A stretch of 17,013 nt of DNA, from IMG/VR virus record IMGVR_UViG_2740892232_000002; one strand, given 5' to 3'. The notes beneath the pieces are model-generated. The model searched no databases and had not been told where the DNA came from. It saw only the letters and a list, made by a program, of their open reading frames with translations. The first letter of the stretch is position 1, and the number at the start of each line of letters is the position of its first letter. Both the position numbers and the translations under genes were made by a program. The DNA comes from a virus. Lineage: Duplodnaviria > Heunggongvirae > Uroviricota > Caudoviricetes. This document shows positions 11,804 to 16,848 of this stretch, in pieces.

Positions 11804-12838
11804 TTATTTCACCTGTACCACCACAAACTCATNNNNNNNNNNGTCCGGCAACACCATCAGCGGTGCGGACTGCGTCATGGTAAATTCACGGGCAGGATCC
11901 CCCACCGTCAGCCAGTGTTTCGGATAACGGGAAGAAGCCACCACACCTTCGGAAAACGCCTGCGCATCCTGAATGGCTCCGTAACAACGGATCCCATCTG
12001 CAGCAGTATTCCCCAGGACCAGCATGCCATCTGGAAGATAACGTTTTTCGATACCGTCTTCTGCTATATAAGACGTTTTCGCCACAACAATAGCCAGATC
12101 GCCGTAATACCCCTTGAAGGACACCACTGCGCCCAGATCTTTCACTGCCGTTTCGAGTTGTGAATTTGAACCGCGACGGGTATCCAGTTTTTCGCGAAAC
12201 AGCTTAAAACCATTCAGCAGACGCCAGACGGTACCGTCCATGATGGCAATATTCACAAGACCGCTGGCCTGGTCGCAGTAAAGGTCAATATCATGTGTAG
12301 GATCGAACGTGTCACGATCCTGTTTTGACCATTCCTTACCGCTACCCTGTGTGATGTTATTCTTCGTCGACCTGCCAAAATCGACCTCAATTTTCTCGAA
12401 CTGGTCTCCTTCCATGGTGTATTTGCCATACAACACAGCATTTACCGCCTGCATTTCTTCCACCTGGACAATCGCGTGCTCTTCCTGTTTGAGGTTATCG
12501 GTAATGATACGCAGACGGCGGTAAGCCGGATCGTTCAGTTGAGATGGATCTTCACCAGGAAGGCGCTCAACCGCCTGCTGGTAATTAAATTCGTGTTTCG
12601 GCTTGACGTAGCCCGGACGCAACACGCGGGTTTCACCACCACGATGACGCAGCACTTTTCCTTCAACAACCGGGGAGACATAGGCCGCCACCGGCGTTTT
12701 TCCGGTAATTTTGTCCAGCATCACCTCTTCGGTATGGAAATTCACCGTACGGCGGAAAAACAGCTCCAGAAACAGCGCACGAAATTTAACTTTTTGTTCG
12801 GTATAACCGAGTAACTGGCGGGTCGTAAACAATCCCAT
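11804..12838 (-). CDS. E: Major capsid protein E (HK97-fold), interrupted near the C-terminus by a 10-N gap
   Basis: ORF MGLFTTRQLLGYTEQKVKFRALFLELFFRRTVNFHTEEV...RGSNSQLETAVKDLG...GDPAREFTMTQSAPLMVLPD[NNN]EFVVVQVK aligns along its length with lambda gpE (MSMYTTAQLL...TGDPAREFTMIQSAPLMLLADPDEFVSVQLA) at moderate identity. AAGGA SD 7 nt upstream. The gap at 11833-11842 falls 8-11 codons from the stop. Confidence 0.9.
   Translation of the reverse strand: MGLFTTRQLLGYTEQKVKFRALFLELFFRRTVNFHTEEVMLDKITGKTPVAAYVSPVVEGKVLRHRGGETRVLRPGYVKPKHEFNYQQAVERLPGEDPSQLNDPAYRRLRIITDNLKQEEHAIVQVEEMQAVNAVLYGKYTMEGDQFEKIEVDFGRSTKNNITQGSGKEWSKQDRDTFDPTHDIDLYCDQASGLVNIAIMDGTVWRLLNGFKLFREKLDTRRGSNSQLETAVKDLGAVVSFKGYYGDLAIVVAKTSYIAEDGIEKRYLPDGMLVLGNTAADGIRCYGAIQDAQAFSEGVVASSRYPKHWLTVGDPAREFTMTQSAPLMVLPDXXXXEFVVVQVK
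11833..11842. other. Assembly gap (10 N) inside E
   Basis: Run of exactly 10 n. Flanking translation (…LMVLPD / EFVVVQVK) against lambda (…LMLLADPDEFVSVQLA) suggests at most a few bases are actually missing. Confidence 0.95.
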
Positions 12839-13279: not shown

Positions 13280-14095
13280 TCATGGCATGGCCATGAGCAT
13301 TTTCACGTCCGCATCACCGTCTGCTGACGTCTGTGGCACGCCACCCTGTACCGCTGCCGGTGAATGGTTCGCCATGAAATGTTCAAACATGGCGGTTGTG
13401 GATGCAGAGACCGGTTCTGCCTTACCTGATCCCGCAGCCAGCACAGCCCGGGCGCTCTCCACTGTCATTCCCGGGCAGGCAGCCAGCTGTTCAGCCTGCG
13501 CCTCAGCCCCTTTTGCCTCATCCAGTGCCATGATCTGATCACGGAGTGATGGTCCGGCATCCGCCTGCGGTGAAGCAGCCAGGATCGGGCGGGCTTTTTC
13601 CACCGTCATCTCCGGCATCGCCGCCAGCGTTGCCGCCAGTTGTTCACGACCGTTCGCTTCTTCACACGCCATAATGCGATCGGCTTCACTCTGCGTGGAT
13701 GCCACCGGCTGCTGCGGTGCCGCCGCGGCCAGAATCGCCCGGGCCTGTTCAACGCTCATGCCCTGTTGTCCTGCCAGCATCGTGGCAAGCTGTTCACGTC
13801 CTTTCGCTTCCTGGCATGTCAGGATCCCCATCACTCGCTGGTTCTCCTGCGCGGCGGCTTCCGTTGCAGTTAATTGCGGCATAGTGCCTCCTCTGACATT
13901 ACTGTTCAGCGCCGTGGCCATCACACTGATGGCATCCGACGCATTGATTAATTCATCCGCCAGCCCGGCCTCAATGCCGGACTGACCTTCAAAAACGGCA
14001 GCCTCTGTTCCCGTGACGGCATCAACAGACAGACCGGTATACATCGCCACTTTTTCGGCAAACATCCGGCGCGCCGCATCAATCCGCTGCTGCAT
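13280..14095 (-). CDS. Nu3: Scaffolding protein Nu3-like, nested in-frame in the 3' part of C; start uncertain (ATG at 14095 or 14065)
   Basis: In lambda, Nu3 is translated from an internal in-frame start in C. Two in-frame ATGs (14095..14093 and 14065..14063) lie near the equivalent position (…DMQQRIDAARRMFAEKV…). The C-terminal region is low-complexity, A/Q/E-rich and scaffold-like. Start not verifiable from sequence alone. Confidence 0.35.
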   Translation of the reverse strand: MQQRIDAARRMFAEKVAMYTGLSVDAVTGTEAAVFEGQSGIEAGLADELINASDAISVMATALNSNVRGGTMPQLTATEAAAQENQRVMGILTCQEAKGREQLATMLAGQQGMSVEQARAILAAAAPQQPVASTQSEADRIMACEEANGREQLAATLAAMPEMTVEKARPILAASPQADAGPSLRDQIMALDEAKGAEAQAEQLAACPGMTVESARAVLAAGSGKAEPVSASTTAMFEHFMANHSPAAVQGGVPQTSADGDADVKMLMAMP

Positions 14096-15150
14096 GTCCT
14101 GGCGAACCTCTGCCGGCAACGCTTCAAACTGATTGCCATCCACCTTGTGCGCACCTGAGTAAATCAGCGTGATATCCACACCGGCCTGCGCCAGATGACC
14201 GGCATAGCTGACATGGCTCATCATCACGCCAATGGAGCCGATACGGGATGTCTGGGTAACCAGCCGTCGGGAGCAGGCCGACGCCAGCAGCATGGCTGCA
14301 GAACAGGCCGTGTCATTGCACAGTGCCCAGACCGGCTTCTGCTGACGGAGGCGGTAAATCATGTCAGCACAGTCAAACGCACCGGCGGCCTGCCCGCCCG
14401 GACTGTCAATGTCCAGCAGTACACCCCGCACCTGGCTATCCGCCATTGCCTGCTGAAGACAGGCGACAATGCCGTCATAGCCTGTCATTCCGGAAAATGG
14501 CCGCATACCACCCAGCCGGTGCACCAGCGTGCCGGTCACCGGCAGTACAGCAATACCGTTCACCACCCGGTAAACACGGGCCGGTCGTTTACCTCCGGCC
14601 ATATACTCGTCCGTTTCAGCCAGCATTCCGGGAGCATCAAGCTGTACCTGTTGTTGTGGTACCGAAAGACTTGCTGCCCCCATCTCGCGCCCGAGCGCGC
14701 AAAAGAAAACCCGCGCATAGGCGNNNNNNNNNNGCAGTCAAACGCGCCGGCGGCCTGCCCGCCCGGACTGTCAATGTCCAGCAGTACGCCCCGCACCTGG
14801 CTATCCGCCATTGCCTGCTGAAGACAGGCGACAATGCCGTCATAGCCTGTCATTCCGGAAAATGGCCGCATACCCCCCAGCCGGTGCACCAGCGTGCCTG
14901 TCACCGGCAGTACAGCAATACCGTTCACCACCCGGTAAACACGGGCCGGTCGTTTACCTCCGGCCATGTACTCGTCCGTTTCAGCCAGCATTCCGGGTGC
15001 ATCAAGCTGTACCTGCTGTTGTGGTACCGAAAGACTTGCTGCCCCCATCTCGCGCCCGAGCGCGCAAAAGAAAACCCGCGCATAGGCGGGCTCCAGAAGC
15101 AGCGGTTCATTGAATGCTGCGGCAATAATGTGTGAAAGATTACGTCTCAC
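13280..15150 (-). CDS. C: Head maturation protease C (S49/ClpP-like) with C-terminal scaffolding (Nu3) domain; span inflated by a 10-N gap and a 353-bp unmerged overlap, true length about 500 aa
   Basis: N-terminal fragment from GTG 15150 (MRRNLSHIIAAAFNEPLLLEPAYARVFFCAL...) and the main ORF (…VVNGIAVLPVTGTLVHR…SRRLVTQTSRIGSIGVMMSHVSYAG…ITLIYSGAHKVDGN…) align with lambda gpC (…MNGIAVLPVSGTLVSR…SRRLVTQTARTGSIGVMMAH…ITLIYSGSHKVDGN…). Start overlaps the B 3' end by 11 bp. The reading frame is broken only by the gap/duplication at 14724-15088. No in-frame ATG is available upstream, so the start codon call is uncertain. Confidence 0.85.
13422..13843 (-). repeat. Three tandem, diverged ~135-140-bp (~45-aa) in-frame repeats within the C/Nu3 scaffolding region
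   Basis: Protein repeats: …RVMGILTCQEAKGREQLATMLAGQQGMSVEQARAILAAAAP… / …DRIMACEEANGREQLAATLAAMPEMTVEKARPILAASPQ… / …DQIMALDEAKGAEAQAEQLAACPGMTVESARAVLAAGSG…. Also visible at the DNA level as three imperfect direct repeats. Confidence 0.8.
14371..14723. repeat. 353-bp near-identical direct copy of 14736..15088, separated from it by the N10 gap; probable unmerged contig overlap
   Basis: Seen in sequence: constant 365-bp offset, no indels, 7 substitutions. All 7 are synonymous in the C reading frame (both copies translate to …MGAASLSVPQQQVQLDAPGMLAETDEYMAGGKRPARVYRVVNGIAVLPV…GAFDC). Confidence 0.85.
14724..14733. other. Assembly gap (10 N) at the junction of the duplicated C 5' segment
   Basis: Run of exactly 10 n, flanked on both sides by the same C-gene sequence. 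Confidence 0.95.
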
Positions 15151-16848
15151 GTGGTGTTGTCTCCTCTTCCGGCCTGCGACTCTCCGCTATCTGCTGCTGA
15201 TACGCCTGCGATATCCACACCGGACGTGAGAGTCCGGCTTTTTGCCGCTCTGCAGATTCCCTGACCTGCTGGCGGAAAATGTCCTGATAATCCTCGCCCA
15301 TCAGCGCCAGCTCTTTNNNNNNNNNNCTATCCACACCGGACGTGAGAGTCCGGCTTTTTCCCGCTCTGCAGATTCCCTGACCTGCTGGCGGAAAATGTCC
15401 TGATAATCCTCGCCCATCAGCGCCAGCTCTTTCTCATACGTGCTCAGTCCGGCCTCAATGCGCATCACTGATTCCTGAACCTCCTTGAGCCCGTCAATGG
15501 CCATTCTTCCGGCTCCAATCCACTCAGCCCGTGACCAGGCTGATCGCGCCTGATAAAAATCAAAACGTGCCCGTGGCGGACGAATAATCCCCCGAAGAAG
15601 TGCCTCTTCCAGCCAGCAGGAAAACATCTGCGTGGCCAGTCGGGACGCAATAAATTTTCGCCGCCCCATAAAATAGCGCCACGACTCATTGGCGGATGCG
15701 CGGGCACTTGAATAACTGACCTTCGAGTAATCACGGGACAACTGTTCGTAGGAAACGCCAAGACCGGCGGCGATATACCGCAGCAGCGCCTGTTCAAGCG
15801 CCGAAAATCCATTGTCTGAATCCTGCGCGGTCTGAAGTTTCAGATCATCACCGGGGAAAAGGTGCGGAATTTTGACACCGCCCAGCGTCACGCTATTCGT
15901 GTCATACCAGGTGGAGAACTTATCCAGAATATTAATAAGCGGATTATCCTTCTGCCCCTGCGGCGCACCGGCGATATATTCAAAGGCCTTTTCGGTATCA
16001 AGGTCACTTTCAATCGTCGCTGCATACATCGCCTTCACTATGGCCGACTGAAGCTGTGTTGCCTGCAGGGAGTCCAGCATCTTCAGCCGTTCCATAACGC
16101 TGTAAAACTGATTGGCTCCACGGGTCTGCCCGTCCTCCACCGGCTCGAAAATATGCAGCATGGCCGGACGCCCGGTGGGAAGTTCACGCGGGATCCGTTC
16201 CCATCGTCCACTCCCGGAGCGAGGAAAATCATCCTCACAGATATGGTACGCAACGGCACGGCCATATCGATCAACCTCCACACCGGCCCGCAGAAAACGG
16301 TTCCCGATACCGTGTCCTGGCGTGTCCACCCGTTTCGGACTCACGGCTTTAAAACGCGTACGAAACAGTTGCGTGCTCTCCGTATCCCAGACCGGCTGCA
16401 CAAAGATTTCGCCGTTAAACGCATGAACGCCCACACCTTCACGGATAAATTCCGTAAACGTGCGTTTCCCTTCCACGTCGATCTCACCAAACATCCCTTC
16501 TGCGTATTCTGACCAGGCCGCCTCCACCTCATCGACAAAACTTTTTGCCGCGGTCTCCCGCATCCCCAGCCAGCGCCAGTTCGGACGGTAGCTAATCAGA
16601 AACATATGCCCGACAATGTGATCCTTATGCAGGGCCACCGCATTGGCCGCTATTCCGTTATTGCGCACCAGATCATCTGCACGGGCATTCCCCAGACGCA
16701 ACGCGGGCAGCAGGGCCGCATCGGCACTCTGCGAGGGTGGCAACCACTCTGCCATTTGCCCGCCAAATCCTGCACCGCCACCGTTGTAGCTGAGGCTCTC
16801 CCGAAGCGGAACGCCGTTCACATCAATCAGGACAGGCGTTCGTTTCAT
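15140..16848 (-). CDS. B: Portal protein B; span contains a 10-N gap and a 105-bp unmerged overlap, true length about 533 aa
   Basis: ORF from ATG 16848..16846: MKRTPVLIDVNGVPLRESLSYNGGGAGFGGQMAEWLPPSQSADAALLP…ARADDLVRNNG…EPVEDGQTRGAN.FYSVME…LQSAIVKAMYAATIES…LRYIAAGLGVSYEQLSR…ARASANESW.YFMGRRKF…DWIG.GRMAIDGLKEVQE.VM.IEAGLSTYEKE aligns along its length with lambda gpB at moderate identity. The C-terminal 23 codons (…SQAYQQQIAESRRPEEETTPRET) lie beyond the gap and end at 15140. Confidence 0.88.
15212..15316. repeat. 105-bp near-identical direct copy of 15328..15432, separated by the N10 gap; probable unmerged contig overlap in the B 3' end
   Basis: Seen in sequence: tatccacaccggacgtgagagtccggcttttt[g/c]ccgctctgcagattccctgacctgctggcggaaaatgtcctgataatcctcgcccatcagcgccagctcttt on both sides of the gap. 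The single mismatch changes one B codon (Q versus E). Confidence 0.85.
15317..15326. other. Assembly gap (10 N) inside B
   Basis: Run of exactly 10 n, flanked by duplicated B sequence. Confidence 0.95.

Follow-up and report, generated by a model that had tools for sequence, protein, structure and literature searches.

In phage lambda the gene of the S49-type protease C contains, nested in the same frame, the gene of the scaffolding protein Nu3 (lambdap05/06), and the pair is embedded in the gene order B-C/Nu3-D-E. The Nu3 protein is reported to contact itself, C, the portal protein B and the capsid protein E, and it may be degraded by C (PMC3224144). A comparable nested pair, genes 5 and 6, is annotated in Escherichia phage 21 (M81255 and OL657228), where gene 6 of M81255 additionally bears the repeat_region features 'Tri1 box', 'Tri box' and 'Tri3 box', all three with the description 'function unknown; putative'. 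Here we consider a gene of this type in a stretch of 17,013 nucleotides (nt) from a virus of the Caudoviricetes (IMG/VR record IMGVR_UViG_2740892232_000002), the whole of which is referred to below as the window. The last 200 codons of its C-like open reading frame (ORF), on the minus strand, hold three in-frame units of 40-45 amino acids (aa). We regard it as very probable that these units are the Tri boxes of a gene 5/6 of the phage 21 type, belonging to a lambdoid prophage or phage of E. coli, and that they arose by an ancient in-frame triplication; they would act as contact modules of the scaffold.

When the phage collection was searched with tblastn, phage 21 (M81255 and OL657228) was recovered with 99.4% aa identity over 467 aa and phage ev017 with 99.6%. 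Over 631 nt (L002 2280-2910) the window and M81255 differ at two positions, 13668 and 13336, which respectively result in the substitutions V72A and A183P in the gene 6 product (gp6), and the former is the one difference that falls inside the boxes. When projected onto the window, the Tri1 box covers 13712-13815, the second (Tri) box 13565-13675 and the Tri3 box 13421-13534, and the three boxes map onto the three units. The nested ORF, its putative ribosome-binding site (RBS), the boxes and their positions are shared with phage 21, and the differences noted are the two gp6 substitutions and the location of the window copy in a gapped draft assembly. The C-like ORF is of the phage 21 gp5/gp6 - lambda C/Nu3 type: it contains an N-terminal, SppA/ClpP-like Peptidase_S49 domain (PF01343; aa 112-259, E = 3.2e-35, 121.8 bits against a cut-off of 24.9), it lies after the portal gene and is followed first by the gene of the decoration protein and then by that of the major capsid protein, and it bears all three Tri boxes. 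The repeat units are a rediscovery of the Tri boxes of phage 21. As these are already annotated and the gene is common in E. coli (see below), the finding is correct but ordinary, and it carries little weight as a discovery; the annotation of the triplication in the head operon of phage 21 is decades old. We take the name of the boxes from the GenBank annotation; a literature search for their original description found none. The boxes are said to have been described by Smith and Feiss in 1993 (Gene 126:1-7).

The sequence-only reading of the window had claimed three diverged, in-frame copies of about 45 aa between 13422 and 13843. Such copies are indeed present, as indicated by both a shuffle test and a three-way alignment, and the measured limits of the units (13421-13843) depart from the claimed span by no more than 1 nt. 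Local BLOSUM62 scores between the units range from 83 to 101, against 22-25 (+/- 4-5) in shuffled sequences (z = 12-18), and none of the 2000 shuffles scored as high. The units are 53-61% identical in aa in pairwise local alignments and 45-56% identical in the three-way alignment, which has 16 invariant columns. At the DNA level they share 54-63% identity, with a proportion of synonymous differences (pS) of 0.59-0.68, and synonymous sites are near saturation. Because the units have diverged to this extent, DNA repeat finders are blind to them: neither a DNA repeat search nor Tandem Repeats Finder (TRF) reported a repeat within 13400-13900, and TRF returned just the 365-nt assembly overlap at 14370-15089.

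This overlap is one of several signs that the window is a gapped, scaffolded draft, and they raise the question of an assembly artefact, in which the units would have been generated from mis-joined or expanded repeats and the real genome would have fewer of them. Three N-runs are found at 11833-11842, 14724-14733 and 15317-15326, all outside the repeat region, and two redundant contig ends lie nearby. The first of these (14370-14723 against 14735-15088; 347 of 354 positions identical) was left unmerged and interrupts the C/gp5 gene at its 5' end, and its 2% divergence suggests that reads of two related prophages were mixed. The second (15212-15316 against 15328-15432) agrees at 104 of 105 positions and falls at the portal gene's 3' end. 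No overlap flanks the N-run at 11833-11842, which is close to the 3' end of the gene for the major capsid protein. The ORF as found in the window comprises the last 467 of 501 codons and the stop, the first 34 codons being located beyond the redundant contig end; the true start of the C/gp5 gene is the GTG at 15150, and the resulting 501 aa equal the length of phage 21 gp5. However, the contig overlaps do not reach the three-unit repeat, and units that are 54-63% identical in nt and devoid of long exact repeats would not have confused short reads. Furthermore, the piece of 2881 nt that the gaps enclose aligns over its full length, as a single colinear block, with finished E. coli chromosomes, and the identity is 99.9% in strain 2013C-4282. 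The 603-nt gene 6 was also found at a coverage of at least 80% in 1864 of the 5426 complete E. coli genomes (2922 places), the matches listed spanning 603 nt, and phage 21, for which there are two independent sequences, has it as well. The probability of an artefact is therefore close to nil, and for practical purposes this explanation, which the sequence-only reading had likewise argued against, is refuted. With a presence in about one third of the finished genomes, the three-unit gene is among the commonest prophage head genes in E. coli.

The gpC homologue of the Salmonella phage Gifsy-1 (STM2605.Gifsy1), which is 63% identical overall, likewise has three units in the same order, and these are orthologous to those of the window position by position. 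The identities are 77% between the first units, 80% between the second and 60% between the third, against 42-58% between units of different positions, and in a neighbour-joining tree the units of the window and Gifsy-1 group by position and not by phage. As the units pair by position, the triplication is older than the divergence of these phage lineages of E. coli and Salmonella, and the earlier proposal of an old in-frame duplication is upheld. The Gifsy-1 protein differs from that of the window in its linkers and tail, and also in its unit 3, which keeps the motif GREELAE. In comparison with Gifsy-1 the ratio of nonsynonymous to synonymous substitution rates (dN/dS) is 0.06, 0.10 and 0.19 for units 1, 2 and 3 and 0.50 for the tail, all of which are rough values as dS is near saturation. 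They indicate purifying selection on the units, with the protein rather than the DNA being conserved.

This conservation in amino acids, in the face of nearly saturated synonymous sites, argues against the alternative that the repeats act as DNA, for example as repeated binding sites. Such a role could be suggested by the annotation of OL657228, in which gene 6 has two matches to a 'CII binding site' pattern, ttgynnnnnnttgy (L003 2307-2320 and 2541-2554). These correspond to about 13864-13877 and 13630-13643 on the opposite strand of the window, and one of them is inside Tri2. Just two such matches exist, out of register with the three units; they are probably due to chance. A search of Rfam gave no match in the region, and promoter-like or terminator-like sites were no more numerous than expected from shuffled sequences. 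We consider a function of the repeats at the DNA level to be extremely improbable.

A profile of the three units was compared with 1.84 billion representative proteins, and it matched 427 of them at E <= 0.001, corresponding to at least 427 protein clusters at 50% identity. Among the listed matches of at least 380 aa, one unit is found in 54 of 55 proteins and three units in the remaining one. Given this predominance of single-unit relatives, a single unit is the norm, and the array is characteristic of the phage 21/Gifsy group. All 8 full-length proteins that were examined have a Peptidase_S49 domain upstream of the unit. Three members of the same set (P0119, P0145 and P0126) are evident chimeras, in which a lambda-like C is combined with Nu1, a tape-measure fragment or the tail protein L, and these probably derive from engineered lambda vectors or from misassembly.

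Departures from three units were uncovered by a search for gp6 homologues, which gave mostly fragments and was used to spot two-unit and four-unit variants, not to estimate their frequencies. An E. coli prophage variant annotated as 'S49 family peptidase, partial' (P0026) has the same domain, placed after the S49 domain, with four units instead of three. Units 2-4 of this variant share 80-88% identity, an indication that they arose by a distinct, later expansion. No named phage was found to carry this four-unit form in a tblastn search of the phage collection, the best match having 61% identity. In the rare two-unit forms (P0018 and P0022) the junctions lie at homologous positions of neighbouring units, and these forms may be real deletions or sequencing errors. 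Taken together the three variants point to changes in copy number by unequal recombination, with the reservation that the rare cases are possibly sequencing errors.

The C protein of lambda (NC_001416) has exactly one unit, at aa 357-400, in accordance with the single copy given in the sequence-only reading. This unit is about 60% identical to unit 1 of the window and is preceded by a linker of about 48 aa rich in S, T, A and Q, while the protease parts of the two proteins share about 55% identity. That reading had also allowed for the case that lambda and its close relatives already carry the same three units; this is so for phage 21, ev017, Gifsy-1 and many prophages, but not for lambda. The related claim that the triplication lengthens the scaffold holds by one measure and fails by another. 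From the conserved GGxM to the C-terminus there are 200 aa in the window against 132 aa in lambda, but the annotated scaffolding proteins are alike in size, with 200 aa in gp6 and 201 aa in Nu3. The two are equal in size despite the extra units because their internal starts differ: Nu3 starts at aa 239 of C (L001 2633), inside the protease fold and 69 codons further upstream than gp6, the start of which corresponds to aa 308 of lambda C. Genome size is not tracked by the number of units (phage 21, 42.9 kb; lambda, 48.5 kb; ev017, 50.1 kb).

Modeling of unit 1 with AlphaFold2 (AF2), using an alignment of 84 units, gave a mean predicted local distance difference test score (pLDDT) of 88.5 and a predicted template modeling score (pTM) of 0.68, with helices at 2-14, 23-30 and 37-46. 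Each unit is predicted to fold independently, as a small bundle of three helices. For gpNu3, intrinsic disorder has been reported. The model of the whole gp6 is poor (pLDDT 64, pTM 0.27), with a beads-on-a-string appearance in which the linkers fall below 50. The residues that are near-invariant across the 84 units (I13, E18, A19, G21, R22, A26, L29, A30, A40 and L44) are mostly hydrophobic and located in the three helices, or belong to the EAxGR segment that in the model is positioned between helices 1 and 2. The 40-45-aa unit is covered by no curated domain family in Pfam-A or NCBIfam, and it is matched by the uncurated PHROG families phrog_53, 8399, 8940 and 17040. A sequence search of the PDB gave no match, a Foldseek search of the PDB with the model of the whole gp6 returned nothing below E = 2, and no match in sequence or fold to solved scaffolding-protein domains was detected that would link the units to the P22-type coat-binding helix-turn-helix. 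We also considered whether each unit could be a helix-hairpin-helix (HhH) DNA-binding motif, by means of which the scaffold or protease would bind DNA. The segment LAxxPGMTVExARxIL looks HhH-like by eye, and the Pfam HHH model (PF00633) gave a weak match; however, this match is restricted to unit 3, is sub-threshold (E = 0.019, 15.3 bits against a cut-off of 24) and was rejected, and we regard a DNA-binding HhH as very unlikely.

Based on these observations we propose that the units are small three-helix bundles, joined by short flexible linkers rich in P, Q and A, that would serve as protein-protein contact modules of the scaffold. The C-terminal scaffold domain would be translated from one frame in two forms, as part of the S49 protease (gp5/C) and, from an internal start, as a separate protein (gp6/Nu3), and the three units in series would thereby furnish both the scaffold and the protease with a multivalent version of the single contact of lambda. 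The protease would then remove the scaffold domain during head maturation. This arrangement is reminiscent of the herpesvirus UL26/UL26.5 system, in which the protease and the scaffold share a C-terminal domain through in-frame nested translation, and this domain takes the protease into the procapsid. The analogy is one of function, namely a nested protease and scaffold with a common C-terminal domain, whereas the protease fold and sequence are unrelated, and we know of no repeated module in the herpesvirus proteins. For the units themselves, staphylococcal protein A domains and GA modules offer a purely structural analogy, as tandem three-helix-bundle binding modules.

Several points weigh against this proposal. 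The binding of a partner by the units is something that we infer, and the GenBank annotation quoted above assigns the boxes no function. Unit 3 is poorly modeled (pLDDT of about 53), and in the phage 21 lineage its near-invariant Arg and Leu have been lost (GAEAQAE in place of GREELAE); this unit may be degenerating and not fully working. The roughness of the dN/dS values has to be counted here as well. Finally, by analogy with other phages, the 46-aa tail that follows the units, rather than the units, could be the capsid contact.

The last point is part of an alternative in which the units are modules for self-association of the scaffold, as a dimer or oligomer, and the C-terminal tail is the capsid-binding element. 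Nu3 of lambda is reported to interact with itself and to form dimers (PMC3224144). Helical or helix-turn-helix elements of the scaffolding protein touch the coat protein in P22, phi29, SPP1 and 80alpha, and the coat-binding helix-turn-helix of P22 is C-terminal (PMC11565965). In the window a tail with a predicted helix comes after the units. Yet the tail, with a dN/dS of 0.50, evolves faster than the units, which is unexpected for the main capsid contact. We consider this alternative possible but rather unlikely; furthermore, self-association would be a sub-variant of the reading of the units as contact modules and does not contradict it. By eye, in an impression that has no computed alignment behind it, the pattern of the gp6 tail resembles that of the lambda tail (ALDRLMQ...DAVNDLLNTPV).

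No other part of the Nu3-type scaffold domain is conserved as well as the unit. What gives it remaining value is that this unit, with its GenBank label of 'function unknown', is without a curated domain model or a matching solved structure. Going further, we tentatively raise the possibility, itself somewhat doubtful, that the Tri unit is a widespread three-helix module that marks the scaffold part of S49-type proteases, and that its copy number has shifted repeatedly between 1 and 4, through duplications and deletions in frame, and sets the valency of the contacts. If this were true, the number of units would provide a simple and evolvable control on procapsid assembly, via the valency of scaffold and protease contacts with the capsid or portal protein. 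The natural variants with one, two, three and four units offer a ready-made series for studying the recruitment of the lambda-type scaffold and protease into the prohead.

The features of the locus are given in Table 1. On its minus strand the window carries head and tail genes of the lambda type, and the gene order around the C-like ORF is that of lambda and agrees with the annotations of M81255, OL657228 and the matching finished E. coli genomes. M81255 lists the nested ORF as the coding sequence '6', and OL657228 lists it as 'scaffolding protein'. Its ATG at 13882, with GGAGG upstream, is the same as the annotated start of gene 6 and represents an internal start predicted from sequence, and the Shine-Dalgarno-like site is given as a putative RBS in the annotations of both records.

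Table 1. Features of the C/gp5-type gene and of its nested scaffold gene in the window
Feature	Position	Strand	Sequence	Remarks
C/gp5-type prohead protease-scaffold ORF	13280..14683	-		From the ORF list; 467 aa
Nested in-frame scaffold ORF (phage 21 gene 6, Nu3 equivalent)	13280..13882	-	starts MPQLTATEAAAQ	200 codons and stop
Shine-Dalgarno-like AGGAGG/GGAGG	13886..13893	-	AGAGGAGGCACTATG	4 nt upstream of the gp6 ATG
Unit 1 (U1)	13712..13843	-	NQRVMGILTCQEAKGREQLATMLAGQQGMSVEQARAILAAAAPQ	gp6 aa 14-57; hmmsearch i-Evalue ~1e-25
Linker 1	13688..13711	-	QPVASTQS	Predicted disordered; pLDDT <50 at gp6 aa 57-63
Unit 2 (U2)	13565..13687	-	EADRIMACEEANGREQLAATLAAMPEMTVEKARPILAASPQ	gp6 aa 66-106
Linker 2	13547..13564	-	ADAGPS	Separates the helices of unit 2 from those of unit 3 (AF2 model)
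Unit 3 (U3)	13421..13546	-	LRDQIMALDEAKGAEAQAEQLAACPGMTVESARAVLAAGSGK	gp6 aa 113-154; most degenerate unit
gp5/gp6 C-terminal tail, one predicted helix	13283..13420	-	helix: TTAMFEHFMANHS	gp6 aa 155-200, 46 aa; AF2 helix 161-173

Opposite the C gene, several antisense ORFs of 61-103 aa are found on the plus strand at 13287-13985; evidence from homology, RNA or promoters did not come up for them, no search aimed at it having been made, and they have the look of shadow ORFs in GC-rich coding DNA.
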